Of a DNA stretch of 24,000 nucleotides, positions 600-16,665 are shown one piece after another. This DNA is from Nevskiaceae bacterium (GTDB lineage Bacteria > Patescibacteriota > Saccharimonadia > Saccharimonadales > UBA4665), in NCBI GenBank assembly GCA_035526505.1, contig DATLCF010000001.1, positions 133,144 through 157,143 of the forward strand, in the 5' to 3' direction. The position numbers were made by a program, and so were the translations under genes. How positions within the stretch are numbered: the first letter of the stretch is position 1; each line of letters starts with the position of its first letter. The notes beneath the pieces are model-generated. The model was not told the DNA's origin and made no database searches. It saw only the letters and a program-made list of their open reading frames with translations.

Positions 600-1019
600 T
601 TAGGCGGTCGTTTCGACTGCTTTGTCCAGAACAAATCGGACGATAAACTGGGCAAGCGCCACAATAATCAACCCGACAACCGCAAAGATAATGGTATTCT
701 TGGCTGCCGATACGTTACCGGAGTCACCACCGGAAGTAATGTATTTAAAACCACCGTAGATGATCATAATTACGGCCACAATACCCACGATGGCCGAAAA
801 AATGTTAACGATAAATGTAATGAGCTTGGTTATGCCACTGGTGCCTGAACTTGTTTGAGCACACCCGTCGCTCGTCAACTTAAGCTCGGTACCTCCACAC
901 AAGTTACCTTGGAGTTCTGTTGCTGCGGCGAATGCCGTCACTGGTACCAGTACGGGAACCGCCACCAATCCTAAACTTACCGCGACAACTGCTAATTTTT
1001 TGCGCAATGACTGCAACAT
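600..1019 (-). CDS. T4SS pilin-like protein, VirB2/TrbC-type, paralog 1
   Basis: 139 aa. Signal peptide (KKLAVVAVSLGLVAVPVLVPVTAFA|AATE) and a two-Cys ectodomain (CGG-x9-C). Then TM1, loop GGFKYITSGGDSGNVSAAKNT, and TM2 (IIFAVVGLIIVALAQFIVRFVL). SD-like AAGGAAAG lies upstream. Confidence 0.8.
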   Translation of the reverse strand: MLQSLRKKLAVVAVSLGLVAVPVLVPVTAFAAATELQGNLCGGTELKLTSDGCAQTSSGTSGITKLITFIVNIFSAIVGIVAVIMIIYGGFKYITSGGDSGNVSAAKNTIIFAVVGLIIVALAQFIVRFVLDKAVETTA

Positions 1020-1053
1020 TTTTAACTTTCCTTTCTTAACGATACTGCTTACT

Positions 1054-1082
1054 TTTATAGCACTCTGAAACTTTATTTACAA
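1054..1082 (-). promoter_or_regulatory. Candidate sigma70-type promoter for pilin paralog 1
   Basis: On the minus strand: TTGTAA (1082-1077), 17-nt spacer, TATAAA (1059-1054), about 35 nt upstream of the ATG at 1019. Confidence 0.35.
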
Positions 1083-1113
1083 TACCTGAAATACAACGGG
1101 CGGACGTGCCGCT

Positions 1114-1563
1114 TTAGCCAGTGGCCCCTGATTTTGCCAACACAAAGCGGACAATAAACTGGGCCATAGCCACGACAACCAGCCCGACCACGGCATACAC
1201 CAATGTGTTGCGGGCAGTATGGACGGCATTGCCGTCGCCCTGGGAGGTTATGTATTTAAAGCCGGAAACAATGATCATAACAATGGCGGCTATTCCTACG
1301 ATGGCCGAAAACAGGTTAATAAGATTTTTTATCGTGGTTTGCAGCGACGATTGCCCGCCACAGCCAACCCCGCCTAATTGGCCAATGCCAGCACATGCAT
1401 CGGCATGCGAAGTACTGCTGCCAATAACTACAGGACCAGGAACATACACGGACGCAGCCGACGCCGCAGGCGTTATCCCTGCAACAAATACGCCGGCAGC
1501 CAGGGCCAGGGCAAAAAAGGTGTGTTTATTTTTTTGTACAAATTGTGCAAGCATAGAAACCAT
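1114..1563 (-). CDS. T4SS pilin-like protein, VirB2/TrbC-type, paralog 2 (alternative start at 1554)
   Basis: 149 aa. Signal peptide ending AASA|ASVY and a Cys pair (CAG-x8-C). Core is IVMIIVSGFKYITSQGDGNAVHTARNTLVYAVVGLVVVAMAQFIVRFVL, nearly identical to paralog 1. AAAGG sits better spaced for the second ATG (MLAQF). Confidence 0.8.
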   Translation of the reverse strand: MVSMLAQFVQKNKHTFFALALAAGVFVAGITPAASAASVYVPGPVVIGSSTSHADACAGIGQLGGVGCGGQSSLQTTIKNLINLFSAIVGIAAIVMIIVSGFKYITSQGDGNAVHTARNTLVYAVVGLVVVAMAQFIVRFVLAKSGATG

Positions 1564-1578
1564 ACCTTTTAATATACA

Positions 1579-1965
1579 CTATGCAATTCTATTCAGAACA
1601 AGTACGACAATTGCCTGCGACAAGGCTGTAACTGCCAAACCGATAGCCGCATATATAACACCTTGACGCCCTTTGCTAAAGTTGCCCGGGTCGCCGCTTG
1701 CCGTTATCATGCGCAAGCCGCCCACAATCACCATAATTACCGCGGCTATGCCGGTAATAACCGAGAGCACGTTCAACACAACCTTCATGGTGGCAATAAT
1801 AGGATTGGTGCTGGTTGGCCTGGCATCCCTACATACATCGGTATTGGCTGCCGCGCCGCTGCAAGTGTCGGTAAAAATGTTTACTGCCCCTGCAGTGCCG
1901 GGCAGGGCCATAACTGGGAACAACAGGGAAGCGGCCATACATAGGGCGACCAGCTTTTTACGCAT
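1579..1965 (-). CDS. T4SS pilin-like protein, VirB2/TrbC-type, paralog 3
   Basis: 128 aa. Signal peptide MRKKLVALCMAASLLFPVMALPGTAGA and a Cys pair CSG-x7-C. Core is VIMVIVGGLRMITASGDPGNFSKGRQGVIYAAIGLAV. Confidence 0.8.
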   Translation of the reverse strand: MRKKLVALCMAASLLFPVMALPGTAGAVNIFTDTCSGAAANTDVCRDARPTSTNPIIATMKVVLNVLSVITGIAAVIMVIVGGLRMITASGDPGNFSKGRQGVIYAAIGLAVTALSQAIVVLVLNRIA

Positions 1966-2294
1966 TATAATATCCCCCGAATGGCAAACGTTACGATAGC
2001 TTCGGCACTTAACGCAATTGCCAACCCGACCAGCGCATACACAATAGTTTGGCGTGCTTTGGCGATTTCCTGCGGGTCACCATCTGCCGTAATAAAGCGC
2101 AGACCAGCCAAGACAATTAAGATAACCGCCAGCACCCCAATAATCCCGAATACAAGCTGCAAAATAACCTGCAGGTTGGCTGTATTGGCACTTACTTTTG
2201 GCAACCCGGTGTCACACTGGCTGCCGCTACCACAGCGAGCCTGGGCAGTGGCAACAAGCTGCAGGGCTGTAGTGATTAGGCCGCCCGCTATCAT
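1965..2294 (-). CDS. T4SS pilin-like protein, VirB2/TrbC-type, paralog 4
   Basis: 109 aa. Short hydrophobic leader and a Cys pair CGSGSQC. Core is VILIVLAGLRFITADGDPQEIAKARQTIVYALVGLAI. Its stop overlaps the start of paralog 3 (TAATG, 1963-1967). Confidence 0.75.
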   Translation of the reverse strand: MIAGGLITTALQLVATAQARCGSGSQCDTGLPKVSANTANLQVILQLVFGIIGVLAVILIVLAGLRFITADGDPQEIAKARQTIVYALVGLAIALSAEAIVTFAIRGIL

Positions 2295-2656
2295 TTGAAT
2301 CTCCCGGCTATAAAGGCAACAACCGTGGCAGCCAATATGGCAATAACCAGGCCGATAATGGCGTTGAGTATCGTCTGGCGAGCCTTAGTGGTTGCCCCCG
2401 GATCACCCTGGCTGGAGATGAATTGAATACCGCCCCATATAACTAAAGCTACCGCAAATAGGGCAACCAGGCGGAGTAAATCTTCGATAATTGCAGCCAG
2501 GATCAGCCAAAGGTCGCTAAGGCCGGAAAGTTGGGGTGTACACAAATGGGTGTTGGGATCGGGGGTACCATTCAAGTACTTGTACCATTTTGGGAAGCCT
2601 AAAAAATCGCCGCCGGGGCACGCCGCGCCAAAGCGCGTCAAGAGTTCGGTTATCAT
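2291..2656 (-). CDS. T4SS pilin-like protein, paralog 5; atypical, with no recognisable signal peptide
   Basis: 121 aa. The N-terminus MITELLTRFGAACPGGDFLGFPKWYKYLNGTPDPNTHLC is not hydrophobic. The same core is present (ALVIWGGIQFISSQGDPGATTKARQTILNAIIGLVI). ATGA overlaps occur with both neighbours. Confidence 0.7.
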   Translation of the reverse strand: MITELLTRFGAACPGGDFLGFPKWYKYLNGTPDPNTHLCTPQLSGLSDLWLILAAIIEDLLRLVALFAVALVIWGGIQFISSQGDPGATTKARQTILNAIIGLVIAILAATVVAFIAGRFK

Positions 2657-3027
2657 GTAAAGAATCCTCCGGGGATAACAAAGTTAAGCAGTGCAAAGCC
2701 AAATATATACACTAACAAAGCAACCACGGTGTTAACAATTCTGTCAACTGCCTTAGCTGTGGCCCCGGGGTCGCCGCGCGACAGCGTGTATTGGATGCCG
2801 GCCCATATTAATGAGGCGATTATGACCAGCCCCACACCCAGCGACAGAAAACGGATGACCCCAAACAGCATATCGGTCAACGGATTGCCAGTGCCAGTAC
2901 ATCCTATATTAATACTGGTGGTTACCCGTTGATTAGCGCCACCGCACTGGGCTGCATAGACCGACAGGGGGACAACCGTAATAGCAAGCGCGACCATAGC
3001 GGACAGTATATGTAGTCGTTGTTTCAT
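2653..3027 (-). CDS. T4SS pilin-like protein, VirB2/TrbC-type, paralog 6; start trimmed to the internal ATG at 3027
   Basis: Starting at 3027 gives the canonical signal peptide MKQRLHILSAMVALAITVVPLSVYA|AQCGG. Cys pair is CGG-x12-C. Core is SLIWAGIQYTLSRGDPGATAKAVDRIVNTVVALLV. The extension to 3087 in the ORF track adds a non-signal-like 20 aa and would overlap the predicted promoter. Confidence 0.75.
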   Translation of the reverse strand: MKQRLHILSAMVALAITVVPLSVYAAQCGGANQRVTTSINIGCTGTGNPLTDMLFGVIRFLSLGVGLVIIASLIWAGIQYTLSRGDPGATAKAVDRIVNTVVALLVYIFGFALLNFVIPGGFFT

Positions 3028-3037
3028 GCTGAGTCTA

Positions 3038-3066
3038 ACTATAGTATCGATTGCACGATGCCACAA
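3038..3066 (-). promoter_or_regulatory. Candidate promoter for pilin operon paralogs 6 to 2 (possibly through paralog 1)
   Basis: On the minus strand: TTGTGG (3066-3061), 17-nt spacer, TATAGT (3043-3038). Only 10 nt separate the -10 element from the ATG at 3027. Confidence 0.35.
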
Positions 3067-3092
3067 GCTGCTCGTGCACAGCCACATTCATG

Positions 3093-3121
3093 TTGTGCCA
3101 AGTATGTAGACGCACTATACT
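3093..3121 (+). promoter_or_regulatory. Candidate promoter for the plus-strand T4SS operon
   Basis: TTGTGC (3093-3098), 17-nt spacer, TATACT (3116-3121), 25 nt upstream of the ATG at 3147. It is divergent from, and similar in sequence to, the pilin-operon promoter. Confidence 0.35.
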
Positions 3122-3146: not shown

Positions 3147-4499
3147 ATGGTAATAAAAAGACTCTCGCAAAAGCACCGTACACGTATATTTACGCTTCTG
3201 TTTGGTGCGTTGCTTGTTTTCCCCTTGGCCGCTGGCACTCAAAAAGCCCTTGCAGCCGTGCCCGGCGTTACAAGTTTGTCGCGCTCCGATGCCAATACCA
3301 TCGGCGTAACCACAAGTGTTAATAATGTACCGGCGCCAGGCAATGTTTTAAAGGCTAGCGACGGTAAATCATTTAGTGGCAATATTGTGGTATTTCGTGA
3401 ACCTCTTTCGGTTACCGAATCGTTTTGTTTTGTACCAGTAAAGGCAGCACTTACCGAATCGACTAACCTGGCCGGTCAAAAATCACTGAGCGCCAAACTA
3501 ACGGCGGATACCGCGTCTGCCACTACAACCATACAAGGACCGCCCAGCAATACGGGCGTAGGCTTTGTTATTGTAAACAAATGTTCCGGTGCCCAAATAA
3601 ATCAATACAACAACCAGACAGTGAATGTGCTTGATGCCTGTCTGAATGGTTGTGTGGGCGGCGGCACAAGCGACAGGGAAGGCGACGAGCACGAAACCAA
3701 TCCCACCTGCGAAACGTCGCCGGGCGCCGGCCCGCTCAGCTGGATTTTGTGCGGGATCTACAATACTGTTGCCGATTCTACCGACTGGATCTATAGCAAC
3801 GGCATCCAACCCTTGCTGCGCATGAAGCCCATCCCCATCAGTGATACCGGCAGCAACAAAGTGGTGTTCGAGCTATGGTCCGCCTTCCGCCTATATGGCG
3901 ATATCTTTTTGGTCATTGCCCTGCTGGTTATTGTGTTCGGCCAAGCCATTGGCGGCGGGGTGGTGGAAGCCTATACCGCGCGCAAGGCCTTGCCCCGTTT
4001 ACTCATGGCAGCCATTCTTATTAACATATCTATCTATATTGTAGCGTTTGCCGTGGATGCCACTAACGTTGTTGGCGGCGGCTTGGGACAAATAATGACC
4101 GCACCCCTTACCGATACGGGCAAATTTAATATCCGGCTCGATCTTAGCGAACAGGCCACCTCGCTGGGTGTAGGTGGCGCGGCCCTTATCGGTGCCGGAC
4201 TGGCGGGTGTTATATCATTAGGTAGCTTGGCTTCCGCACTGCCGTTCCTACTACTGTTTGCGGTATTGCCGTTATTCCTGGGGTTACTGGCCATACTTAT
4301 TACCCTGATCGTGCGCCAAGCATTAATTATTTTGCTGGTTATTGTATCGCCCGTGGCCTTTGCCCTGTGGTGTTTACCTAATACCGAAAAATACTTTGGC
4401 CAATGGTGGGAGCTATTATTTCGGGCCTTACTGATATATCCTATGATTGTAGCCTTGTTCGCTATTGCAGATTTAATGTCGGTAATTTTTGGGAGCTAA
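3147..4499 (+). CDS. VirB6/TrbL-like polytopic T4SS membrane protein with an N-terminal Cys-rich extracytoplasmic domain
   Basis: 450 aa. Signal peptide (RIFTLLFGALLVFPLAAGTQKALA), then a ~200-aa hydrophilic Cys-containing region, then about six TM helices. The segment SPVAFALWCLPNTEKYFGQWWELLFRALLIYP resembles the conserved VirB6/TrbL core. Confidence 0.65.
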   Translation: MVIKRLSQKHRTRIFTLLFGALLVFPLAAGTQKALAAVPGVTSLSRSDANTIGVTTSVNNVPAPGNVLKASDGKSFSGNIVVFREPLSVTESFCFVPVKAALTESTNLAGQKSLSAKLTADTASATTTIQGPPSNTGVGFVIVNKCSGAQINQYNNQTVNVLDACLNGCVGGGTSDREGDEHETNPTCETSPGAGPLSWILCGIYNTVADSTDWIYSNGIQPLLRMKPIPISDTGSNKVVFELWSAFRLYGDIFLVIALLVIVFGQAIGGGVVEAYTARKALPRLLMAAILINISIYIVAFAVDATNVVGGGLGQIMTAPLTDTGKFNIRLDLSEQATSLGVGGAALIGAGLAGVISLGSLASALPFLLLFAVLPLFLGLLAILITLIVRQALIILLVIVSPVAFALWCLPNTEKYFGQWWELLFRALLIYPMIVALFAIADLMSVIFGS

Positions 4500-4503
4500 T
4501 GCT

Positions 4504-5724
4504 ATGGCATTGTGGGAAAACTTAGAACCAGTACTTGAGCTTGCAGCCCCTGGGTTTGTATTGCTGTACGGTACTAAATATGCCATCGAAAGAGCCCGCG
4601 GACCGTTAGGCTTTACCTTTGGAAAAACAAGTGAAGTGGGCGAACGGGGACGCAAATTGGCCATGGGCTCGGAACATGACCCCAAAAGCTGGCAAAACAT
4701 GGCCCGTACGAACTTCCGGCGCGGCCGGTTGCGCAGGCGCGAGGCGGTCATTGGCACCATGAATAAACGAGAGCTAGAAATTGGTAAAGGCCAGGAGGGC
4801 AAACTAAGCCTTAAGCAAAGGGCCCAGCGCAGGGTATACTCCACTGCCGCGCGCGCCGTGGGGTACGGGGACTACGAAGGCGCCATATCGGAAGCCAACA
4901 AATCCGAGGCCGAACGTATTGCCACCCACCAAACCTATGGCCCGGACAGCACGGTTCGCGCCCAATGGGCCTACGAAAAAGACGGGCGTTACTATAACTA
5001 TGCCACAGGCCAAGAAATGGCCACGGCAGATGTCAAGATGGCCCGCCGCGTATCTGGTAAAAACCTGTCCGCCCTGCAAGAATCTTTGTCATACGAAATG
5101 ACCAAGGCCGACAACGACGAAACATACGGCAAGCTTATGTCCCGGTACATGGACCGCGCCCAAGAACTTGGCTTATCCGAAGACGAAGCGAATGGCGTAT
5201 GGATTGGTCCAGCCTTTAAAAACAAAACGATGCGCCTGGAACAAAAAGCCCGCAAATTCAAAAAAGGTGCCGATGGCAAGTTCTATGACGCTGGCATTAA
5301 TTACGATTCGTTCTCGTCCGAAGCAGCTAATAAGTTCAAACAATACGACTACAGCGGCATTCAATCTTCTACCTTCGGAGCCATGGGGGATGACATTAAA
5401 GTACTTGCCCAAAAGAACCCTGCGCAGCTGAACGCCAAAGAACTTACCAGAATGCAGCACTACTACCATGCCCTAACAAACCTGGAAGCCCCGACCATGA
5501 TGCCTGGCGGCGATGGCGGTACGCCCGGCGGTGTGCCGGCTGGTGCGCGAGCTGCAAGCTTTGGGGGTAGCGGTGTAAGCAGTGCCCAGGCCAAAGAAGC
5601 TATGTCACTTATTAAGGACGCCGCCCAATACGACAGCCGCATTACACAGTTGCCTTCGTATGCCGGTATGAGCGGCCCTGTAGCTTACCAGGAAGCTCGC
5701 AGCGACTACGGTAAAGCGGCCTAG
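4504..5724 (+). CDS. Hypothetical hydrophilic, basic protein coupled to the VirB6-like gene (T4SS-associated, no family recognised)
   Basis: GGGAG (4491-4495) lies 8 nt before the ATG at 4504. The ORF-track start at 4489 is a TTG inside the upstream gene. No TM segments; charged/helical composition with a G/P-rich stretch near the C-terminus. Confidence 0.55.
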   Translation: MALWENLEPVLELAAPGFVLLYGTKYAIERARGPLGFTFGKTSEVGERGRKLAMGSEHDPKSWQNMARTNFRRGRLRRREAVIGTMNKRELEIGKGQEGKLSLKQRAQRRVYSTAARAVGYGDYEGAISEANKSEAERIATHQTYGPDSTVRAQWAYEKDGRYYNYATGQEMATADVKMARRVSGKNLSALQESLSYEMTKADNDETYGKLMSRYMDRAQELGLSEDEANGVWIGPAFKNKTMRLEQKARKFKKGADGKFYDAGINYDSFSSEAANKFKQYDYSGIQSSTFGAMGDDIKVLAQKNPAQLNAKELTRMQHYYHALTNLEAPTMMPGGDGGTPGGVPAGARAASFGGSGVSSAQAKEAMSLIKDAAQYDSRITQLPSYAGMSGPVAYQEARSDYGKAA

Positions 5725-5736
5725 CCTATACGCTAT

Positions 5737-5765
5737 TTGACACTGACAAAAAATTTGGCTATAAG
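5737..5765 (+). promoter_or_regulatory. Candidate internal promoter with consensus -35
   Basis: TTGACA (5737-5742), 17-nt spacer, TATAAG (5760-5765), with the ATG at 5773 exactly 7 nt after the -10 element (leaderless geometry). Confidence 0.4.
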
Positions 5766-5772
5766 AATCTGT

Positions 5773-6480
5773 ATGGTTGATCCCGGTCTATTTTTGGTCC
5801 AAAGAAGTCATGAGCTTGCAGCAGAAGCACACCGACGCGCCCATATCCCGGTCCTGCCGGCAGCGCAGGCAATAGCCGAGCGTGAGGACAATATACTCAA
5901 ACTTACCGCATATATTGCCGAACAGTTGCGGAAAAAGCGCATAGATCCCGGCATAGTAGTGCACACCCAGGTGCGGTACGAGCACATGTCGGCAACAGGC
6001 ATCACGGAAGCGACAGCTATGATACATGATGAAAAGCCTGGCGATGCGGTAATTGGTAGTGCATGGGAAATAGCGCGCATAGGTGATTCGGCACCGGGCC
6101 AAAGCCCTTACCGCAGGCCCCCTTTGTTACAGCGCGGCATTGGCATTTTAGCAACCGCCGGAGCCGAAGATCTTGTACGCTATAAACGGGCGCGTAACGG
6201 TACGTATTATATAAGTGACGAGGATGGCAGTCCGGATGGCAGGTTCGACCCCGACCGGGCCCAAGGGCCGACATGCATCGATACAGAGCTCCCGGACCGA
6301 AAAAACCCCGAGCTCGTAACGCAGGCCCACCAGGAACTGGGGCTTGTCATACCACCTACTGATTCAGAAAGTGCGCTGGGTATATTCCGACGGTTTTCTA
6401 AAGTCTTAACGATAGAAAACTTGCTTACAGAATACGCCGGTCGCATGGGACTTATACCAAACGATCAAACCCAGGCCTAA
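5773..6480 (+). CDS. Hypothetical soluble protein (T4SS-locus orphan); start placed at the first ATG
   Basis: The ORF is open from 5737 (TTG), and that TTG is part of the TTGACA promoter-like hexamer. First ATG is at 5773. 235 aa with no TM, signal or nucleotide-binding motif recognised. Confidence 0.5.
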   Translation: MVDPGLFLVQRSHELAAEAHRRAHIPVLPAAQAIAEREDNILKLTAYIAEQLRKKRIDPGIVVHTQVRYEHMSATGITEATAMIHDEKPGDAVIGSAWEIARIGDSAPGQSPYRRPPLLQRGIGILATAGAEDLVRYKRARNGTYYISDEDGSPDGRFDPDRAQGPTCIDTELPDRKNPELVTQAHQELGLVIPPTDSESALGIFRRFSKVLTIENLLTEYAGRMGLIPNDQTQA

Positions 6481-6543
6481 ATTAGGGACTAAACGCGTGC
6501 TTGGTATTCAGCACGCACGCCTATTCGGGTATACTAAAATCAG

Positions 6544-7701
6544 ATGGCAACATACAAGGTTATCCAGGATATTGAGGCCGAGGACAAACTGATTGGGCCT
6601 TTGAGCTTCCGGCAGTTTGTATATGCCGGCATTTGCGCGCTGTGTTTATACCTAAGCTTTTTGCTCATTAGCAAAGGCGCGGCATTCGTAGCAGTGGTAT
6701 TTTTGCCCGTTATATTACTGAGCGGCTTTTTTGCTTTCCCATGGGGCAGGGACCAACCAACCGAAGTTTGGGCACTAGCGCGTATTCGTTTTATGTTAAA
6801 ACCCCGGCGGCGTATTTGGAACCAAAGTGGCGTCAAAGAGTTGGTAACTATTACCGCACCCAAGCAGTTGGGAACAAATTATACGAATGGCTTAACCCAA
6901 ACCGAGGTACAAAGCCGCCTGCGCGCCCTGGCCGATACCATTGACAGCCGCGGCTGGGTAGTCAAAAATGCCAATCTAAACCTGTACGGCCAACCTGAAT
7001 TAGTTATGGGCGAACCGGCTTCCGATCGTCTGGTTGCTGTCGAAAGCCTGCCGCGGGGTGTATCCAATGTAGAGGTACTGCCATCCGACGACATGATGGA
7101 CGAACACAACAGTCCGGTCGCCCGGCAGTTTGATTCCATGATACAGACCTCGGCCAAAAATCATCGCCAACAAATCTTAGACCGTCTGCAGGGCAAACAA
7201 CTAAGCCCGTCGCCAGCCCAGCAGCAACAGCCGACGCCGGCGTCTAACAACACTGCCCCGGCCAATAATTACTGGTTCCTGAACCCGCCATCGCGCAGCG
7301 CAACCAGCGCACCGCAAGATGCCGTAACATTCAATGCGCAGGTTGTGGCACCTGGCGCGCAGGTCACAGGCCTGCCGGCGCCCATGCCGGGCACCCCCAC
7401 CAGCGACGAAGAAGCGCTGCTGCAGCAGCTTGGTACACAACCGCAGCTGCAGGCGAATCCCTATGGCCATTTACACACTGTTTTGCCCCTTTCGGCACAG
7501 CAGGCTAGGGCCGCCCAACAGCCGGTTGCGCCCCCGGTACAACCCACACTACCACCAGCCATACCTCCAGTGACACAGTCTCCGGCGCCTGCTATACTGG
7601 ATCTTGCAAACAACGACGACCTTAACGTGGCGACCATCGCGCGCGAAGCACAAAAGCGCACCGAGCCGCCCCAAGACGAAGTGGTCATTTCACTACACTA
7701 A
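6544..7701 (+). CDS. PrgI family / VirB3-like T4SS membrane protein with a long P/Q-rich C-terminal tail
   Basis: The N-terminus MATYKVIQDIEAEDKLIGPLSFRQFVYAGICALCLYLSFLLI plus a second TM (AAFVAVVFLPVILLSGFFAF) matches the PrgI-type hairpin. From about aa 219-355 the sequence is low-complexity Q/P/A-rich. Confidence 0.7.
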   Translation: MATYKVIQDIEAEDKLIGPLSFRQFVYAGICALCLYLSFLLISKGAAFVAVVFLPVILLSGFFAFPWGRDQPTEVWALARIRFMLKPRRRIWNQSGVKELVTITAPKQLGTNYTNGLTQTEVQSRLRALADTIDSRGWVVKNANLNLYGQPELVMGEPASDRLVAVESLPRGVSNVEVLPSDDMMDEHNSPVARQFDSMIQTSAKNHRQQILDRLQGKQLSPSPAQQQQPTPASNNTAPANNYWFLNPPSRSATSAPQDAVTFNAQVVAPGAQVTGLPAPMPGTPTSDEEALLQQLGTQPQLQANPYGHLHTVLPLSAQQARAAQQPVAPPVQPTLPPAIPPVTQSPAPAILDLANNDDLNVATIAREAQKRTEPPQDEVVISLH

Positions 7702-7723
7702 TTACTTGCGTATATATAAGTTT

Positions 7724-8752
7724 ATGGAACCTTCTTCACCAAACCAACCGTACGCAGCCCCGGGGGCAGCACCGCCGCCCGGACAACCCCAGCCCGGCGC
7801 TGCCGGACCGGCTTTTGACCCCACAACTGTGGATGGGCACCAGTTTGCAACACCCGGCTATGCACCAGCCGCGGCTCCTTCTATGAATGCCGCACAAATG
7901 CAAGGGCAGGCCATGCCCGCCCAGCCAGGTGTCCCGCCGCAGCCGCAACAAGCCCCTGCCGGGGTAGGAGCACCCGTTACCGGCGGGGGTCCGGCACAAC
8001 CAACCACCAGGCCGGTGCGTGCTGCCAATCCCAACAGCACTCAAAACAGCTTGCTGATTGCCGAGATCCGCGATGGCATTGTTATTATGAGCGACGGTTC
8101 GTTCCGTTCGGTCATAATGGTTAAGTCAATTAACTTCGATCTTATGAGCCAAGCCGAACAAGAAGCGGTTGAATACAGTTATCAGGGCTTCTTAAATTCG
8201 TTGTATTTCCCAATCCAAATATTCGTGCGCTCCCAAAAGGTCGACCTCCAACCCTATGTCGAACGATTGGACAAAATCCGCACCGAGCACGAAAATATGC
8301 TGCTAGCCTTGTTAATGGAAGACTACATTGCCTACATCGACGCCCTGGCCCAACAAACCAATATTATGGACAAAATGTTCTACATTATTATTCCGTACTT
8401 CCCGCACGTTGCTGTGCAAAAGGCTCTTACCCAAAGCAAAACTTTCTTTACCGGCATCATGGGGCTGCTCAATAACAAAGATCAGCACGTGGTTATTAAC
8501 GAAGCAGATCTGGAAACTGCCAAAAATGAGCTGCGCAACCGCGTACAGGTAATTTTAAGCGGCTTATTGCAATGCGGCGTGCAAGCGCTGCCGCTGGATA
8601 CCCAGGAACTTATCGAACTGTACTACGACACCTACAATCCCGACACGGCTACCCGCCAACAGCTCAAAAACTTTAACGACCTAAACGCCGACGTTATCCG
8701 CAAAGGCGCAGGGCGGGTACCGCAAGCTCACTTGCAAAGGGAGTTAGGGTAA
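7724..8752 (+). CDS. T4SS-associated protein: P/Q/A-rich N-terminal region plus a C-terminal domain resembling the non-catalytic N-domain of VirB4-type ATPases
   Basis: Start moved to the ATG at 7724; the 7604 start would overlap the upstream gene by 98 nt. No Walker motifs. The segment IRDGIVIMSDGSFRSVIMVKSINFDLMSQAEQEAVEYSYQGFLNSLYFPIQIFVRS ... MFYIIIPYF parallels the N-terminal part of the downstream VirB4. Its stop overlaps the VirB4 start (TAATG, 8750-8754). Confidence 0.5.
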   Translation: MEPSSPNQPYAAPGAAPPPGQPQPGAAGPAFDPTTVDGHQFATPGYAPAAAPSMNAAQMQGQAMPAQPGVPPQPQQAPAGVGAPVTGGGPAQPTTRPVRAANPNSTQNSLLIAEIRDGIVIMSDGSFRSVIMVKSINFDLMSQAEQEAVEYSYQGFLNSLYFPIQIFVRSQKVDLQPYVERLDKIRTEHENMLLALLMEDYIAYIDALAQQTNIMDKMFYIIIPYFPHVAVQKALTQSKTFFTGIMGLLNNKDQHVVINEADLETAKNELRNRVQVILSGLLQCGVQALPLDTQELIELYYDTYNPDTATRQQLKNFNDLNADVIRKGAGRVPQAHLQRELG

Positions 8753-10647
8753 TGGCACGCAAACAAAAGATGGATGCAGTGGGATTGGCACAGGCCCAAC
8801 AGCAACGTGAGCAGCAAGAAGTTAGTGCGGCGTTCCAAAAAGGCATTACGGCGCTGCGCGACTTTATCGCCCCCAGCTCGCTGGAATTCAACAGCGCATT
8901 TTTCCAGCTGGGCACCCGGCTAGCGCGCACCTATTATGTCTACGGATACCCCCGGCAGTTATACACCGGCTGGCTCAGCCCTGTGATTAACCTGGACGAG
9001 GTCATGGACGTTTCGATGTTTATCTATCCGGTCGAAAGCCAGGTAGTGCTGGAAAACCTGCGCAAAAAAGTTACCCAGCTAGAAGCTGGTATTCAGATAG
9101 ACAGCGAAAAGGGGCGGGTACGCGACCCGCAAAAACAAGCCGCTATTTTGGACGCCGAAGAAATGCGCGACAAACTGCAGGTGGGCGAAGAGCGCTTCTT
9201 CCGTTTTGGTTTTTACTTTACCTTGTATGCCAACAGTCAGGACGAGCTGGAATTTGTTAGTCACAAAGTAGAATCACTGCTGGGCCAACAACTTATTTAC
9301 TCCAAACCAGCCAGCTCACAGCAAGAGCAAGGGTTCAATAGTACGGTGCCGCAGCTTATGGACCAGCTGCAAATCCGCCGCAATATGTCCACTGGCGCCA
9401 TTAGCACCAGTTTTCCATTCACTAGCGCCGACCTCAGCCAGGATAACGGCATTTTGTATGGTATTAACATGCACAACTCCGGCCTGGTTATTTTTGACCG
9501 CTTTAGTTTGGAAAACGGCAACTCGGTGGTGTTTGCCAAGTCCGGTGCGGGCAAGTCGTTTGCCGTTAAGCTAGAAGCCCTGCGTTCCATGATGATGGGT
9601 ACCGAGATATTCATTATCGACCCCGAAAACGAATACGAGCGTATGTGCGATGCCGTAGCCGGTGCCTATGTTCGCTTGAGCCTTAATTCGCCCACCCGCA
9701 TTAATCCGTTCGACTTGCCGCGCGTGGTAGATAACGAAGAGGCCGACAACGCGCTGCGCAGTAACCTTATTACCCTACACGGTCTGTTCCGCCTCATGAT
9801 GGGCGGCGCCCAGGCACAGGTGCAGGGCCTTAGCGCAGCCCCGGCACTCAGCCCGGTGGAAGAAGCCGACCTGGATGCGGCATTAATCGAAACCTATGCC
9901 AAAGCCGGCATTACCAACGACCCGCTGACGCACACCGGCGTCCCGCCCACCATTGCCGACCTGTACGACACACTGCTGCACATGGGCGGTACCGGCCCGC
10001 AGCTGGCCCAGCGCCTGCGCAAATACACGAGCGGCACGTTCGCCGGCATCTTTAGCCAGCAAAGTAATATTAATATCAACAACCCATTAGTGGTGTTTAA
10101 CATCCGCGACCTGGAAGACGAACTGCGCCCGGTAGCCATGTATATCGTACTGAACTATATCTGGAACAAGACCAAAACCGACCGACGGCGGCGCCTGCTG
10201 ATTATTGACGAGGCCTGGCAGCTTATGAAATACGAGGACTCGGCCAACTTTATGTTCAGCCTTGCCAAGCGAGCGCGCAAATACAACCTGGGCATTACCA
10301 CTATCACCCAGGACGTTGAAGACTTTATGGGCAGTCGCATGGGCCGGGCCATTGTAGCCAACGCCAGCATGCAATTCCTGCTCAAGCAAAGCCCCTCAGC
10401 TGTCGATGTTTTGAGTGACGTATTCAAGCTAACCAGCGAAGAGAAAAAACGCCTCAGTCAATTTCCGGTGGGGCAGGGCCTGTTCTTTGCCGGTCAAAGC
10501 CACGTGCATGTACAAGTAGTGGCCAGCCCGACCGAAACCGGCCTGATCACCACCAACCCCCAACAAGTCCAACAGATGCAGCAGGGCGATATGACCCAAC
10601 CCCAAGGTACAATCGACCTTTCCAACCAACTACGTCCGGGAGTATAG
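8752..10647 (+). CDS. virB4: VirB4-family T4SS ATPase (Gram-positive PrgJ/TcpF/TraE type)
   Basis: 631 aa. Walker A is FAKSGAGKSF (GAGKS at 9544-9558) and Walker B is LLIIDEAW (DE at 10207-10212). The N-domain has RTYYVYGYPRQLYTGWLSPVI, and downstream ITTITQDVEDF is typical of VirB4/AAA_10 ATPases. Confidence 0.9.
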   Translation: MARKQKMDAVGLAQAQQQREQQEVSAAFQKGITALRDFIAPSSLEFNSAFFQLGTRLARTYYVYGYPRQLYTGWLSPVINLDEVMDVSMFIYPVESQVVLENLRKKVTQLEAGIQIDSEKGRVRDPQKQAAILDAEEMRDKLQVGEERFFRFGFYFTLYANSQDELEFVSHKVESLLGQQLIYSKPASSQQEQGFNSTVPQLMDQLQIRRNMSTGAISTSFPFTSADLSQDNGILYGINMHNSGLVIFDRFSLENGNSVVFAKSGAGKSFAVKLEALRSMMMGTEIFIIDPENEYERMCDAVAGAYVRLSLNSPTRINPFDLPRVVDNEEADNALRSNLITLHGLFRLMMGGAQAQVQGLSAAPALSPVEEADLDAALIETYAKAGITNDPLTHTGVPPTIADLYDTLLHMGGTGPQLAQRLRKYTSGTFAGIFSQQSNININNPLVVFNIRDLEDELRPVAMYIVLNYIWNKTKTDRRRRLLIIDEAWQLMKYEDSANFMFSLAKRARKYNLGITTITQDVEDFMGSRMGRAIVANASMQFLLKQSPSAVDVLSDVFKLTSEEKKRLSQFPVGQGLFFAGQSHVHVQVVASPTETGLITTNPQQVQQMQQGDMTQPQGTIDLSNQLRPGV

Positions 10648-10665
10648 TAGGGTCAAAGGTAAACC

Positions 10666-13600
10666 ATGGCGACATACGACGACGAGCAAACAGACGACAC
10701 CGACCAGCCGCAACACACTCCTGGTAGCAATCCTGCGGAGAAACACAATAAAAAAACGACTACAGAAAATCTGAGACAAGCAGAAGATAGTGGTGGAGCA
10801 GCGGACGATGGCGACAACGATGCCGCCGCCCCGGAATCGAACGGCCTTTTTACACCGGATGAGCCAACCGCTCGCGGGACTTCTAAAAGACTCGTTAGCG
10901 TTTTTCGGGGTGCCAGCAAGCGCGATAAAGCTCTTTTTCTGGCTGGCAGTGGCGCAAGTATTGGGCTAGCTGCTGTTTTACTGATAGGGCTGGGCGGCTT
11001 CCTTAAGTTCTTCCAGCTGGACCACCTGATGAGCAATATCGAAAAAAAAGCCTTTATCCGCTATCAGGTAGACATGAACGGCCGTTCGTCCAAATGGATC
11101 AACGCCTATCTAAAACTACGTTTGGGCGAAATTGAAGACCCCAATCTCGCACCAAAAGACCGTGATAACATTTTGTTTCGTTCCAATCGAGTTGACAACA
11201 ACAACCTATTGACCGACTGGTACAAAACCCTGCGTGCCACCAAGTTCGAAAATGAAGTATTCGAAAAAGAGGGTATTAAGTTTACCAGTGTTGCGCATCG
11301 GGTTAATGGTGCTGTGGTATTCCGGCCGGCCGTAATTACTATTAATGACAAACCTATAAAACTCAATCTTACTACGGCTGAGATAAACGCCATTGATAAT
11401 GGCGATGTTAATGGCTTTAATGGCCGGCTAAACGATTTTATCGATGTAACAGCCTTTAAAAACGACAAAGAAGGCCGGGCCGCCATTGCCTCGGTTACCA
11501 AACGCTGGTATCCGCATTGGTACCAAGCCCACAAACGATATATGCTGCGTAAATCAATCCAAAATATGACCGGTATTCGCAGTTGGCGCTTCTTTGAAAA
11601 AACGCGCGATAAAGCCCACGAAGGCTTTGTGGCCACGCGAAATAAGATTCTTATAAAAGCCTTGCCAGAGGATACAAAGAGCGGCAAATGGGTACAATGC
11701 CTGCTAGGTATTGCCGATTGCCGCAATGTTACCAAAGACCCGAACAACCCGGTCAACCGGTCGTCCAGTGCTGTGTTGTCCGAAAATTGTGACGCTCAAT
11801 CTACGAATCCGGCTTGTAAAACCGGCAAAACCGATGCGAACGGCCTGGACGTTAATAACGACGGAAGCGCCGAAGCGGGGGTAGCAGACGGTGTAGCCAG
11901 TGCAGGGGCAGAGGAGGATCTTACCAAAAGCCTTACCAACAAAATATTAAGCCAGGTGCTTAAAAAGCTCAATGCAGCCACAGGCGTACTTTCTGTACTG
12001 GACACCCTGAACAAGATTAACGAAAATATCAAAAAAGGCGCCCTAAGCAATATGGTTTATATAGCCAGAGCCACACAGGCTATGGGGGTATATACCGTGT
12101 ACAACATAATGCGCGATCAAATACGCACCGGCGATCAAGTAACCTCGGCCGAGGTTAATGACGCCATGGAGTCGGTTAATAATGCCGGCAGCAGCCAGGC
12201 CTTCCGCGATGTTATCAACCCAGCCAAAACTACGGCCGCTACCGGCGCCACGGCTTCGGCCGCCGATTTTGCCCCAGCCAAAAATCGCGCCGAATATTGC
12301 AGCTCGCTCCATCAGGAAGCTATGCTATTGCCGCAAAACAAGGATAAAGCCGAGCATGAGTTCCATTTCTTGTGCGCCTCGGAAAAAATAGGTGATGCAC
12401 AGCTGGCAACCAACATCGAAAACGGATGGAAACAGTCCATAGGCGCTGTCTTGTTCCCCATATTAGAAGTCTATAACCGATCGGGTCTAGGCATCGTAAA
12501 CAGCTGGTTCAATGCCGTGGTGGATGCAACTTTCGGCAAAGCCATGTCTGCCATAACCAATAGCATTCTGTCCGGACTTGGTCTGCAGGATAATGTAAAA
12601 GATCTTATGGCATGGTTGATGACCAAGGCCGCGGCCATATTGGGTGCGGGTCCACAGCTGCCTACCAGGGCGCCGGGGGGAATGATTGTCAATCATATTC
12701 TAATGGGGGCCTCCGCCAGTTCTGAGTTTGGGCTTCGCGCCCTGGGCGCAGCCGCTACCAACCCCCAGACGGCCGCAATGGCTAACCAGAATGTCATAGC
12801 CTATCAGACCCAGCAAAACGCCTCTATGAGTTTTAGCGAAAAATACCTGTCGCTATCCAACCCGGAGTCTTCCGCAAGCCAAAGTCTATTTGCCTTTACT
12901 GATGGCAGCAATAACTTTACCGTGGCTTCCATGTTTGGCAAAATGTTGTCCATGCCAGGCACCTTACTGCACAGCAATGCCAAGGCTGCAACCACCGAAG
13001 ATCCGTATGCCGCAGCCAAATTTGGCGGGGTCGACACCTATGACTTCCCCGGTGAATGCCTTAATGTCGACCCATTAACTATGACTCCGGAATCCAGCAC
13101 GAATGCCGACGATTTGGGCCTTATACCAGCTAGTGAACTCACCTGGGATCTGATAAGCAATGGTGATACCTTTAACGACCGGTTATTCCAAAATAATCCT
13201 GACCCGGAAAAAACCAACAAAGTATGGAACTGTGCCATTCTGGATTCCGCGGTGCGGGGCTCTATGGCTGCACCATTCACCAGCGATCTATTAGGTCCTA
13301 ATGCACTTACTAATGGTGGCACCAGCACCGGCTCGACTCCGGCGGAGACGCCGGACGCCACTGGTTGGGCATGGCCAATTAACAAAAACGATTACAAAGG
13401 CATTAGCCAATGCTGGAATGCAGCGCGTAGCGGCGGGCATCACGCCGGTATTGACATCCCCGTTTCCAATAAGCCAGTCTATGCTGCAAACAGCGGTACC
13501 GTAGCAGTAACGGGCTATGACGGTGCGGCTGGCAATTACATGATCATTCGCCACCCTGGTGCAGGCGGCGGTTCGGACCTGTGGTCGACATATGAACACT

Positions 13601-13806
13601 TAAGTTCTATGCGTGTCAAAAAAGGTGACAGCGTTACTGCCGGCCAGCAGATAGGAGTATCTGGCAATACCGGCAACAGTACCGGCCCACACTTGCACTT
13701 TGGGGTTGCCGTGCGGGAAACGTTGGGCAGTTATAGTGACAACTCCCAAACACGCAATCCGCTAAGCTACTTGCCTAAAGACGGAAGGGACACCAGCGGA
13801 TGCTAA
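10666..13806 (+). CDS. Large membrane-anchored protein with a C-terminal M23 (LytM-type) metallopeptidase domain; candidate T4SS cell-wall hydrolase
   Basis: 1046 aa. Acidic N-terminal tail, a single TM (ALFLAGSGASIGLAAVLLIGLGGFLKFF) and a ~800-aa region of unknown type. The C-terminus carries HHAGIDIP (HxxxD) and GNTGNSTGPHLHFGV (HxH), the M23 signatures (about 13370-13790). Confidence 0.8.
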   Translation: MATYDDEQTDDTDQPQHTPGSNPAEKHNKKTTTENLRQAEDSGGAADDGDNDAAAPESNGLFTPDEPTARGTSKRLVSVFRGASKRDKALFLAGSGASIGLAAVLLIGLGGFLKFFQLDHLMSNIEKKAFIRYQVDMNGRSSKWINAYLKLRLGEIEDPNLAPKDRDNILFRSNRVDNNNLLTDWYKTLRATKFENEVFEKEGIKFTSVAHRVNGAVVFRPAVITINDKPIKLNLTTAEINAIDNGDVNGFNGRLNDFIDVTAFKNDKEGRAAIASVTKRWYPHWYQAHKRYMLRKSIQNMTGIRSWRFFEKTRDKAHEGFVATRNKILIKALPEDTKSGKWVQCLLGIADCRNVTKDPNNPVNRSSSAVLSENCDAQSTNPACKTGKTDANGLDVNNDGSAEAGVADGVASAGAEEDLTKSLTNKILSQVLKKLNAATGVLSVLDTLNKINENIKKGALSNMVYIARATQAMGVYTVYNIMRDQIRTGDQVTSAEVNDAMESVNNAGSSQAFRDVINPAKTTAATGATASAADFAPAKNRAEYCSSLHQEAMLLPQNKDKAEHEFHFLCASEKIGDAQLATNIENGWKQSIGAVLFPILEVYNRSGLGIVNSWFNAVVDATFGKAMSAITNSILSGLGLQDNVKDLMAWLMTKAAAILGAGPQLPTRAPGGMIVNHILMGASASSEFGLRALGAAATNPQTAAMANQNVIAYQTQQNASMSFSEKYLSLSNPESSASQSLFAFTDGSNNFTVASMFGKMLSMPGTLLHSNAKAATTEDPYAAAKFGGVDTYDFPGECLNVDPLTMTPESSTNADDLGLIPASELTWDLISNGDTFNDRLFQNNPDPEKTNKVWNCAILDSAVRGSMAAPFTSDLLGPNALTNGGTSTGSTPAETPDATGWAWPINKNDYKGISQCWNAARSGGHHAGIDIPVSNKPVYAANSGTVAVTGYDGAAGNYMIIRHPGAGGGSDLWSTYEHLSSMRVKKGDSVTAGQQIGVSGNTGNSTGPHLHFGVAVRETLGSYSDNSQTRNPLSYLPKDGRDTSGC

Positions 13807-15176
13807 GTATGCACACGATAACCAGATATATCCGGCGCACACTGCTGTTATCTGTTGCAAGTTTATTCGTACTAACACCGGTAGCCAGCGCAGCAACACC
13901 GGCTACCGATTACGATAAGAAGGCCATCTATGGTGCTTCGCCTTTTTATGATCCCAATTACTGTGGGCCTTCCGGCAATAGCACTAATACAGGCGGCAAC
14001 AGCTCCATACCATACAAGCTGCCAGCCAGCACAGGCGAAACCGGCCGCGAAGAATCTATAGATGCCAGTGGCCGGGTACCAAGCACGGGCGAAAAGGTCT
14101 CGTTTGCCAAATATGCCTCGCTTGGCCAGGCCTACCGCGACTACTACATTACTATGCGCTGGACATTTGCATCGTGGAGTTGGGATGGCCACAGCAAAAT
14201 CGTTGACAGCAAGCAACTGGATTGGTTTACCAGCGGTTCCAAGCCGCGCCTGGTACTGGTAACAAACCCTCGCACCCATAAGAGTATTGTTGCTGCTGCC
14301 CTAGAAAGCGGCCCGGGACCATCGGTAGGCACCCAATGGCGAGCCGATCACGGTAATAAGTCATCACCCGCACCCCCTTACTGGCAGGGATATCAAGTGG
14401 GTACACCCAATGGATATGACGGTTTGGTAAGTGGTTTTCCGCCTACCGCCCTGGACGCATTAGGGGCAACAACTGGTTATAGTAGCGATAAAAATCCCGA
14501 CAAGCTTACCTATCAATGGGCTTCTGACCAAGACGCCATGCCAGGGCCAACCAACGAAGTGGCTGCGGCCCAAGCAGATGGCAGTACCTGCGGCACGAGC
14601 GGCACCAATGCGGGAGCAAACGGCTGGGATCTTACCGGTACCCACGCCATGGTTACATACGAGCAATACGATCCTAAATATGCCACCCATCCCTTTGGCA
14701 ACGGTAATATTAAGGACTGTGGCTGTGGCCCTACGTCTATGGCTATGGCCATTGCCACCCTTACGGGCGATAAAAGCGTCACCCCGTCAACCGTGGCAGA
14801 CTACTATGACACACATGGAGGTAGTACCGGCTGTGGCAGCACCTGGAACTGGGCAGTCCTCGGCAATAAATGGGATATCCACGTTGAAAATATTGGCACC
14901 AACCTGGAACAAGCCCGGCAAACAATAAAGGGCGGCGGCCTAGTGTTGGTTTCCTATACAGGACCTCCGTTCCAAGGAAGTAATGGTGGTCATATTTTTC
15001 TTATCCGTGCCGTAACAACGGATGGTAACTTCTATATCGCCAACCCGTTGGGCCATTATGCCGGAGCACGTTGGGCGGACCAAAACACTACCGTGTGGGA
15101 TGCAAAATATTTCTCTACCCAACAGAACGACAAGGGTGGTTTCTTGAAAAATATGTGGGCTATTACTAAAAAGTAG
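13800..15176 (+). CDS. Secreted two-domain putative peptidoglycan hydrolase: C-terminal papain-like (peptidase C39-like) domain and a possible N-terminal RlpA/DPBB-like domain
   Basis: 458 aa. Signal peptide (LLLSVASLFVLTPVASA). DCGCGPTSMAMAIATL plus downstream GGHIFLIRAV ... IANP fits a Cys/His/Asn papain-fold triad. PRLVLVTNPRTHKSIVAAALESGPGP is reminiscent of RlpA-like barrels (weak). There is a 7-nt overlap with the upstream gene. Confidence 0.6.
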   Translation: MLSMHTITRYIRRTLLLSVASLFVLTPVASAATPATDYDKKAIYGASPFYDPNYCGPSGNSTNTGGNSSIPYKLPASTGETGREESIDASGRVPSTGEKVSFAKYASLGQAYRDYYITMRWTFASWSWDGHSKIVDSKQLDWFTSGSKPRLVLVTNPRTHKSIVAAALESGPGPSVGTQWRADHGNKSSPAPPYWQGYQVGTPNGYDGLVSGFPPTALDALGATTGYSSDKNPDKLTYQWASDQDAMPGPTNEVAAAQADGSTCGTSGTNAGANGWDLTGTHAMVTYEQYDPKYATHPFGNGNIKDCGCGPTSMAMAIATLTGDKSVTPSTVADYYDTHGGSTGCGSTWNWAVLGNKWDIHVENIGTNLEQARQTIKGGGLVLVSYTGPPFQGSNGGHIFLIRAVTTDGNFYIANPLGHYAGARWADQNTTVWDAKYFSTQQNDKGGFLKNMWAITKK

Positions 15177-15186
15177 GGGGCAGGCA

Positions 15187-15615
15187 ATGGATCTGAAATC
15201 AAAAAAGAAGCTGCTTATCATCCTAGCTATCGTTGTGGTGGCGCTTATAGCATCTTTGCTTTTTATAAAGCACCAAGACAACCAAAAAGGAAAGGCCACC
15301 CAAACTGGCGGCGACTATAGCCCGGTTAAAACCCAGGTGGTATTCCACGACTCCAATAAGCTGTACGAGGCCCTGCGTAGCGACGAAATCGACACTTTGC
15401 GAGCCAAACTAGCCGATCAACTCCAAAATAAGTACGGCGAGGGTACCTACGATGTCCAGGTGGTTGATGACAAATTAAACTATACACCGAGCGAAAGCGG
15501 TATACCCCCCTCGTTCAGTCTCACTATTACCGTAGATGACAAGCCGACAAAGTTCCAGGTTGACGTTGACATGTCTAGTGGCAAACCGGTATTTACTATC
15601 AAGTCAGAGACGTAG
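15187..15615 (+). CDS. Small N-terminally membrane-anchored protein, last gene of the T4SS operon (function unknown)
   Basis: 142 aa. TM is KKLLIILAIVVVALIASLLFI, followed by a ~100-aa beta-rich-looking domain. SD-like GGGGGCAGG lies upstream. Confidence 0.55.
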   Translation: MDLKSKKKLLIILAIVVVALIASLLFIKHQDNQKGKATQTGGDYSPVKTQVVFHDSNKLYEALRSDEIDTLRAKLADQLQNKYGEGTYDVQVVDDKLNYTPSESGIPPSFSLTITVDDKPTKFQVDVDMSSGKPVFTIKSET

Positions 15616-16662: not shown

Positions 16663-16665
16663 TAG

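Follow-up and report, generated by a model that had tools for sequence, protein, structure and literature searches.

The locus encoding a type IV secretion system (T4SS) at positions 600-15615 of the 24-kb stretch of DNA analysed here (the window) is the Saccharimonadia version of the Patescibacteria T4SS, orthologous to the already described locus SEML1_0004-0019 of Southlakia epibionticum. The evidence supports a vertically inherited chromosomal machine next to the replication origin (oriC), not a conjugative element, and we are highly confident in this identification together with its reading as a pilus or contact conduit. A first reading of the same DNA, made without database searches (the sequence-only reading), had proposed a domesticated core-genome apparatus rather than a conjugative element, and conserved synteny, VirB4 identity and the lack of mobility genes in the window lend support to that proposal.

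The locus consists of two divergent operons, namely six minus-strand pilin genes and a plus-strand operon of ~12.5 kb (3147-15615) that encodes the VirB6-like protein, PrgI, the TrsD-like protein, the VirB4 ATPase and a series of variable proteins. The open reading frames (ORFs) of the window were listed and searched against Pfam and NCBIfam profiles. With respect to relatives, one genome per species was scanned; at least 581 species genomes contained a VirB4 relative, and the best 80 loci (L001-L080) were compared with the window proteins by tblastn, from which all median identities given below derive.

Gene order and conservation beside the replication genes

The same gene order—hsp20, minus-strand pilins, VirB6, PrgI, TrsD, VirB4, 5-9 kb of variable genes, recF, dnaN, dnaA, rpmH, rnpA, yidC—recurred in essentially all of the 80 species-level Saccharimonadales loci with enough flanking sequence. 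These include a complete genome (CP025011.1), in which ~8 kb lie between VirB4 and the end of the record. VirB4 was 84-90% identical across the 80 loci (median 86%), as compared to median identities of 75.5% for DnaA, 74% for YidC, 73% for TrsD, 71% for DnaN and 57% for RecF. Constraint on the secretion ATPase thus equals or exceeds that on the adjacent replication proteins, with the contrast being somewhat inflated by the selection of the 80 loci on VirB4 similarity. Pilins were 38-51% identical, VirB6 31%, and the proteins in the three variable slots after VirB4 (D1, D2 and D3) were mostly undetectable by tblastn. This conservation gradient, high in the motor and low in the predicted extracytoplasmic parts, is consistent with surface exposure and host interaction.

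Inspecting the homologues of VirB4, which number in the thousands, revealed the top 120 to be 87-100% identical, and those named by their source to be mostly Saccharimonadales or Patescibacteria. Likewise, the best 80 loci were nearly all labelled Saccharibacteria, Saccharimonadales or Patescibacteria. Judged by these labels, and not by a tree, the protein falls within the Patescibacteria VirB4 clade. The best plasmid-borne VirB4 was 38% identical. An identity of 84-90% within the group against at most 38% on plasmids, combined with the shared gene order, supports a vertically inherited core apparatus.

Profile scans of the ORFs of the 24-kb window returned no relaxase, type IV coupling protein (T4CP), VirB11 or integrase. 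The window contained neither a tRNA nor any Rfam family, and no repeat pair bracketed the locus, the only notable repeat being the paralogy of the pilins. The absence of relaxase, coupling ATPase, VirB11, integrase, tRNA and direct repeat, as claimed in the sequence-only reading, is therefore borne out for the window. Among the observations named beforehand as speaking against a core apparatus, patchy presence was not seen, and the hidden Markov model assignments of VirB4, VirB6 and PrgI held up.

As a side observation on the origin of the DNA, the exact proteins encoded at 8752-10647, 5773-6480 and 10666-13806 are filed at NCBI as ‘MAG TPA: Nevskiaceae bacterium’, a gammaproteobacterial family. 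Their near relatives are almost all labelled Saccharimonadales or Patescibacteria, suggesting the source metagenome-assembled genome (MAG), or its 562,602-bp contig, to be taxonomically mislabelled or mis-binned.

Parts of the apparatus and its borders

The genes of the locus are as follows; bit scores refer to profile searches, and predicted topology (including transmembrane, TM, segments) derives from a simple hydropathy scan.

pil1, 600-1019, minus strand: pilin of 139 amino acids (aa); PF18895 50.4 bits, TrbC 26.5 bits; last gene of the pilin operon
pil2, 1114-1563, minus strand: pil1-like paralogue, 45-52% identical to pil1; PF18895 52.5 bits
pil3, 1579-1965, minus strand: pilin, 128 aa; PF18895 34.3 bits
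pil4, 1965-2294, minus strand: pilin, 109 aa; PF18895 48.3 bits; position-conserved orthologue class
pil5, 2291-2656, minus strand: pilin, 121 aa; PF18895 37.4 bits; position-conserved class; no clear N-terminal signal peptide
pil6, 2653-3087, minus strand: most divergent pilin; PF18895 25.9 bits, just under the gathering score; first gene of the pilin operon
g7, 3147-4499, plus strand: 450 aa; putative membrane half of an extended VirB6-like protein
g8, 4504-5724, plus strand: 406 aa, basic, no TM segment; putative cytoplasmic half of the extended VirB6
g9, 5773-6480, plus strand: 235 aa, no TM segment; species-specific ORFan between VirB6 and PrgI
g10, 6544-7701, plus strand: 385 aa; PrgI/VirB3-like, PF12666 45.8 bits over residues 5-91; long Pro/Gln-rich tail
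g11, 7913-8752, plus strand: TrsD/TraC-like, akin to the VirB4 N-terminus; precomputed record: PF26593 TraC-like
g12, 8752-10647, plus strand: VirB4 ATPase, 631 aa; P-loop_TraG 98.8 bits, AAA_10 47 bits
g13 (D1), 10666-13806, plus strand: single-pass membrane protein with outer core, linker and C-terminal Peptidase_M23 (90.9 bits)
g14 (D2), 13800-15176, plus strand: exported protein with papain-like Peptidase_C39_2 (PF13529, 45.7 bits); second enzyme slot after VirB4
g15, 15187-15615, plus strand: 142 aa; small single-pass membrane protein with an alpha+beta outer domain; last gene before recF

VirB4 (g12) exceeded the cut-off of the NCBIfam CD1110 family (NF045971 conju_CD1110; 360.2 vs 325 bits), and its closest solved structure is the C-terminal domain of Thermoanaerobacter VirB4 (4ag5, E 2.5e-47). 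Walker A (AKSGAGKS, residues 262-269) and Walker B (LLIIDE, 482-487) are intact. The P-loop_TraG, AAA_10 and CD1110 matches and the motif check thus bear out the VirB4 ATPase of the sequence-only reading. The preceding gene, g11, matched NCBIfam TrsD (NF041427) at 9.6e-7 and was found in 78/80 loci. Positions 11-100 of the CD1110 model fall in g11 and positions 172-732 in g12. The VirB4 motor is hence encoded in two pieces, a TrsD-like g11 and the ATPase g12, as in pGO1. The stop codon of g11 overlaps the start codon of g12 (TAATG at 8750-8754), suggesting translational coupling of the two. The start of g11 itself is ambiguous, its frame being open from a TTG at 7604, with ATG codons at 7724 and 7913 (the source's gene call is 7913-8752). 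Separately, the GC peak of the window (7001-8000; 0.61) coincides with Pro/Gln/Ala-rich low complexity in the PrgI C-terminus and the open frame at 7604-7912 before g11. PrgI was assigned as predicted by its PF12666 match and was found in 74/80 loci.

Six VirB2/TrbC-like pilins had been proposed, and five of them exceeded the PF18895 (T4SS_pilin) gathering score of 26.6 bits with 34-52 bits; the sixth, pil6, is backed by positional orthologues in 52/80 related loci. The source's gene calls are shorter for pil2 (1114-1554, 146 aa) and for pil6 (2653-2997, 114 aa), the latter tagged ‘weak’ in the precomputed record. The six pilins are mutually 22-52% identical. The hydropathy scan revealed a hydrophobic N-terminus followed by two hydrophobic helices—the VirB2 pattern—in pil1, pil2, pil3 and pil6, and two hydrophobic helices alone in pil4 and pil5; every pilin contains two or three cysteines. 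In the VirB2/TrbC-like pil1, these features comprise a signal peptide, two hydrophobic helices and two cysteines. Across relatives, the order pil4-pil5-pil6 is conserved beside VirB6, and pil1-like genes range from one to six copies. The NCBIfam Mbov_0395 model, which describes a pilin-like protein of mycoplasma integrative and conjugative elements (ICEs), matched pil1 with 34.6 bits (cut-off 40), and its companion model Mbov_0397 matched VirB4 with 252 bits. Given these two matches, VirB2-like pilins are not confined to Patescibacteria within the wall-less or monoderm T4SSs.

The VirB6/TrbL-like protein was the weakest assignment and holds at the family level. On its own, g7 matched no Pfam or NCBIfam family. 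It is predicted to contain a signal or TM segment, a cysteine-rich outer domain and five TM segments. A profile of its family (A1, 49 members) searched against the whole PDB yielded a sole match, TrwI/VirB6 of R388 (7o3v_F; E 0.0024, ~120 positions), and Pfam TrbL was weakly matched by 16/49 family members. Together, g7 and g8 are collinear with single ORFs of 936-1073 aa in five of the related loci (L006, L041, L045, L047 and L030). The two genes would accordingly form one extended VirB6, with g7 as its membrane half and g8 as its cytoplasmic, C-terminal half; most relatives encode this protein in one ORF. The presence of the same split in L036 (422 + 453 aa) argues for true gene fission, more probably than an assembly error.

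Between VirB6 and PrgI lies a hypervariable slot. Its occupant in the window, g9, returned only itself when searched against 5.8 billion proteins, and its codon positions (GC1 > GC2) look coding. In relatives, the ORFs in this position are almost all singletons, mutually unrelated by phmmer (E < 1e-3). At one locus (L069:5507-6937), the slot is occupied by riboflavin-pathway genes (Lum_binding, DMRL_synthase, Flavokinase), showing that it accepts foreign insertions inside the T4SS operon.

Downstream of VirB4, D1 was present in 64/64 loci extending to recF, with lengths of 790-1706 aa. An alignment of 43 database homologues defined a core spanning residues 110-880 of g13 (~770 residues, 29-55% identical), in which most of the 32 invariant residues reside and which ends near a conserved motif, NCALLD..VRG, at residues 860-880. 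Beyond it follow 3-731 further residues. These tails carry M23, VanY, CHAP, GDSL lipase/esterase, GDPD, Exo_endo_phos, C39_2 or other domains; 10/43 homologues are tail-less. D1 hence fits a polymorphic-toxin-like architecture, in which the N-terminal core is conserved and the C-terminal catalytic domains are interchangeable. AlphaFold2 (AF2) predicts a mostly helical core (pLDDT 62.5, pTM 0.66), and neither its fold nor its sequence profile matched any PDB entry. The M23 tail of g13 itself has intact motifs (HAGID for HxxxD, and HLH for HxH).

A census of the D2 slot (65 members) returned Phage_lysozyme2 in 33 members, NlpC/P60 and GDSL in nine each, Amidase_3 and CHAP in eight each, C39_2 in seven and M23 in six, as well as SLT, GH3, glucosaminidase and other families. 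The third slot, D3, mostly contains small exported PEGA, Ig-like or prealbumin-like proteins in relatives. Two cell-wall hydrolases had been claimed in the sequence-only reading: both the M23 and the C39_2 domain are confirmed, and it is from its context that the C39_2 protein would be a wall hydrolase.

The last gene of the operon, g15, matched no family in Pfam or NCBIfam and had only four close homologues. Its single-sequence AF2 model (pLDDT 70.5) shows one long helix packed on a curved five-stranded sheet. We considered g15 as a VirB8-like (NTF2-like) protein and did not adopt this assignment: a TM helix is present, but the best Foldseek match had an E of 0.08, and resemblances to NTF2-like folds, designed proteins among them, and to cystatin-like folds were non-significant. 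Four proteins of the locus had initially resisted assignment; two of these now have a place (g11 as TrsD-like, g8 as half of VirB6), and g9 and g15 stay unplaced.

Pfam matches on the flanking genes confirmed the placement of the locus between hsp20 and recF-dnaN-dnaA:

hsp20, 23-478, plus strand: PF00011 66.9 bits; left border; 34 loci share this neighbour, as does S. epibionticum (SEML1_0020)
recF, 23S_rRNA_IVP gene, dnaN, orf83 and dnaA, 15616-19797, minus strand: conserved right border

On the minus strand, recF (15616-16662) converges on g15, and 2.8 kb separate the end of the locus from dnaA; beyond dnaA follow rpmH, rnpA, yidC, jag and a GT4 glycosyltransferase gene. The 23S_rRNA_IVP gene between recF and dnaN (16666-17025, minus strand; 112 bits) encodes a four-helix bundle. 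A homologue was detected by tblastn in only 3/80 related loci, at the same position in two of those, and the gene looks like an accessory insertion amid an otherwise fixed gene order. The 83-aa orf83 (18165-18416, minus strand), called as a gene by the source, overlaps the dnaA stop codon by 8 nt, matched no family and was detected in 1/80 loci.

The low-GC spacer between dnaA and rpmH (19798-19986) probably contains oriC. It harbors three one-mismatch DnaA-box-like sites within ~100 bp (19838-19940); counted over the whole window, the number of such sites was at chance. GC skew in the window mostly tracked the coding strand and was not used to place the origin. A promoter and terminator scan of the window was at chance level and likewise not used; a terminator-like hairpin follows hsp20 (501-518). 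Relative to the presumed origin (~19.8-20.0 kb), the main T4SS operon (3147-15615, plus strand) runs toward it, head-on to replication, and the pilin operon and dnaA-dnaN-recF are co-directional with replication. All related loci and S. epibionticum share this orientation, and the head-on arrangement is unusual for a locus reported to be essential.

Published counterparts and known systems

The sequence-only reading considered the mechanism and substrates of such loci essentially undescribed. This view is outdated, as Wang et al. 2023 (Cell; PMC10633639) and Quinonero-Coronel et al. 2025 (Microb Genom; PMC12102498) describe the system, and a 2025 review (PMC12857230) treats the Patescibacteria systems as a distinct T4SS type. 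The transposon sequencing (Tn-seq) experiment proposed in the earlier reading has also been published for the S. epibionticum orthologues: almost all genes of the locus are essential (PMC10633639).

In S. epibionticum ML1, the locus comprises SEML1_0006-0019, annotated by structure (PMC10633639). Read from the replication side, dnaA, dnaN and recF are followed by a pair of small exported proteins with a beta-sandwich fold, a lysozyme/cysteine-peptidase protein, a protein of 1113 aa with a DD-peptidase at its end, VirB4, a protein of 293 aa, PrgI, a protein of 998 aa, an NTF2-like protein, a TrbL/VirB6-like protein of 1088 aa, the six pilins and hsp20 (PMC10633639). The pilins were noted by the authors, and coupling and relaxase proteins were not recognisable (PMC10633639). 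The gene order of the window is the same in mirror image, and neither locus has a relaxase or coupling protein. The differences fall in individual slots. VirB6 is split in the window (450 + 406 aa) and one 1088-aa ORF in S. epibionticum, and the slot between VirB6 and PrgI contains a 235-aa ORFan in the former, but a ~1000-aa protein (0011) plus the NTF2-like protein (0012) in the latter. The D1 tail is M23 in the window, as opposed to a DD-peptidase (Hedgehog/VanY-like), and D2 is a C39_2 protein, as opposed to two lysozyme domains plus a cysteine peptidase. Downstream, the window has one small protein (142 aa) where S. epibionticum has two (PEGA and prealbumin-like).

According to the survey of Quinonero-Coronel et al., VirB4 of Patescibacteria is monophyletic and related to that of mating-pair formation type FATA (MPF-FATA), virB4 most often has TrsD as its neighbour, VirB3 is of the PrgI type, and VirB6 is weakly detectable (PMC12102498). 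The survey reports 441 VirB2 arrays of 2-11 genes with a mean identity of 25%, abundant in Saccharimonadia, and places the locus near dnaA, dnaN, rpmH and rnpA (PMC12102498). Relaxases are near-absent, and T4CP/VirD4-like homologues occur in many Patescibacteria, mostly far from virB4 (PMC12102498). The window shares the MPF-FATA-related VirB4, the adjacent TrsD, PrgI, the pilin array, the lack of a relaxase and the dnaA vicinity, and nothing in the survey contradicts it. Its accessible text does not describe a D1 core with swapped tails, the ORFan slot or position-specific pilin orthology, and treats the downstream hydrolases briefly; the accessible text of PMC10633639 likewise describes neither the D1 core with its swapped tails nor the species-variable slot between VirB6 and PrgI nor orthology by pilin position.

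Among Gram-positive MPF-FATA systems (TrsD/TrsE of pGO1, PrgI/PrgJ/PrgH/PrgK of pCF10, CD1110 of the Clostridioides difficile CTn), the window shares the CD1110-family VirB4 and PrgI; pGO1 likewise encodes a separate TrsD-like N-terminal protein. Further likenesses are a polytopic VirB6-like protein and a large membrane-anchored multi-domain hydrolase after the ATPase, comparable to PrgK/TraG. In contrast to these systems, the window has no relaxase, T4CP or oriT context and no PrgB-type surface adhesin, and its locus is chromosomal and vertically conserved beside oriC. It also encodes VirB2-like pilins, a component generally missing from Gram-positive systems; the closest model of a pilin-like protein is that from mycoplasma ICEs. 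As to diderm systems of type MPF-T, the g7 family profile weakly matched TrwI of R388, equivalent in the comparison to VirB6 of Agrobacterium tumefaciens, and the pilins matched the TrbC/VirB2 families; unlike those systems, the window is without an outer-membrane core (VirB7/9/10), VirB5, VirB11 and VirD4.

Proposed mechanism, rival functions and significance

In A. tumefaciens, VirB4 acts as a dislocase that pulls the VirB2 pilin out of the membrane, and T-pilus formation does not require VirD4. By analogy, the VirB4/TrsD motor of the window, docked to the membrane through PrgI and VirB6, would extract pilins from the membrane and polymerise them into a tube spanning the epibiont wall to the host cell. 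Given that the locus contains no coupling ATPase or relaxase, it probably operates in a pilus or contact-conduit mode rather than in relaxase-guided DNA export. Gram-positive T4SSs cross the wall using large membrane-anchored hydrolases (PMC12102498, PMC12857230). In a similar manner, the membrane-anchored D1 and the D2 enzyme would open peptidoglycan locally, either the epibiont's own or, plausibly given the turnover of these enzymes, that of the host, with interchangeable catalytic modules matched to the host envelope. The resulting structure would serve as an attachment and transfer conduit, its cargo being either effectors moving out or host macromolecules moving in.

Several points weigh against this interpretation. 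No pilus has been demonstrated to consist of these pilins, and the conduit mechanism draws on parts lists and on the diderm analogy. The VirB6 assignment is based on weak profile matches, and no VirB8-like component was demonstrated in the window, the fold match of g15 being non-significant. The absence of a coupling protein pertains to the window, and distant VirD4-like genes are common in Patescibacteria, according to PMC12102498. Finally, the hydrolases have predicted Sec-type N-termini and need not be T4SS substrates, and could act on the epibiont's own wall only, like VirB1/PrgK analogues.

With respect to principal function, the alternative that survives best—possible, if clearly the less favoured—is a T4SS-derived uptake machine akin to Helicobacter pylori ComB or archaeal Ced, through whose pilus and VirB6 channel the auxotrophic epibiont would take up nucleic acids or other macromolecules of the host. 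As in ComB, the locus lacks a coupling protein and relaxase, and VirB4 is weakly similar to the archaeal DNA-import ATPases CedB and CedD, but its scores (53 and 23 bits) are far under the family cut-offs (700 and 600 bits). Saccharibacteria are without nucleotide synthesis (PMC12857230 and PMC10633639), and the tails of some D1 proteins are phosphodiesterases of the Exo_endo_phos or GDPD type. According to a 2026 preprint, a Patescibacterium feeds on host RNA, and tubes at the Patescibacteria-host interface are suggested to be T4SS pili (bioRxiv 10.64898/2026.06.21.733656). Against these points, no nucleic-acid-binding component was recognised in the locus, and for no monoderm has import via a VirB4-only T4SS been demonstrated. 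In S. epibionticum, moreover, ComEC-dependent competence is dispensable and the T4SS essential (PMC12857230), implying that DNA uptake for transformation is not the essential role; RNA and other cargo are not addressed by this observation.

Slightly less probable still is a translocator of protein effectors, by which proteins of the epibiont would be injected into the host bacterium, with the slot ORFan and the polymorphic D1 and D2 enzymes as candidate cargo. In its favour, g9 and the ORFs at its position in relatives are cytoplasmic, specific to their species and embedded in the operon, the combination of a conserved core and exchangeable enzymatic tails is typical of polymorphic interbacterial toxins, and protein export is one option suggested by Wang et al. 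(PMC10633639). Yet the locus offers no coupling protein for substrate recruitment; TM or signal segments at the N-termini of D1, D2 and g15 make Sec export of these proteins probable; and the ORFans may simply be fast-evolving structural parts. Nor was an immunity-like partner identified: the gene after g13 encodes the secreted enzyme g14, and no immunity candidate was examined. Neither uptake nor effector delivery is mutually exclusive with the pilus model.

The remaining alternative, a Gram-positive-type ICE or its remnant with relaxase, coupling protein and integrase just outside the window, could invoke the CD1110 conjugative-element match of VirB4, PrgI and TrsD as components of Gram-positive conjugation systems, and conjugative plasmids as carriers of the nearest non-Patescibacteria VirB4 relatives, but is very improbable and was rejected, as largely refuted, on synteny and conservation: both borders are housekeeping genes that recur in the genomes of dozens of species as well as in S. 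epibionticum, the same sequence in a Logan assembly, reaching 0.9 kb further upstream, has a phosphoribosyltransferase gene, not an integrase, next to hsp20, neither tRNA nor att-like repeats were found in the window, and VirB4 is more conserved than DnaA and at most 38% identical to plasmid homologues.

The pilus or contact-conduit machine thus remains the preferred reading of the locus. A tentative extension, which we consider possible rather than likely, is that D1 with its swapped peptidoglycan-, lipid- and phosphodiester-cleaving tails, the D2 slot and the ORFan slot form a host-range or attack module, a polymorphic-effector system on a T4SS chassis. Through exchange or diversification, tails and ORFans might then be matched to the envelope of each host, pil4-pil6 might have distinct structural roles, and the pil1-like copies might provide surface variation.

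Patescibacteria have few molecular machines known to be essential for their epibiotic lifestyle, and the T4SS is one of them; it is also an unusual monoderm T4SS in having pilins. This significance, including a genetic test, is already published, and the window provides one more orthologue with comparative detail: VirB6 and VirB4 are each split, modular enzyme tails follow a conserved core of unknown fold, and the ORFan slot is hypervariable. These comparative details could guide host-specificity experiments in cultured Saccharibacteria.

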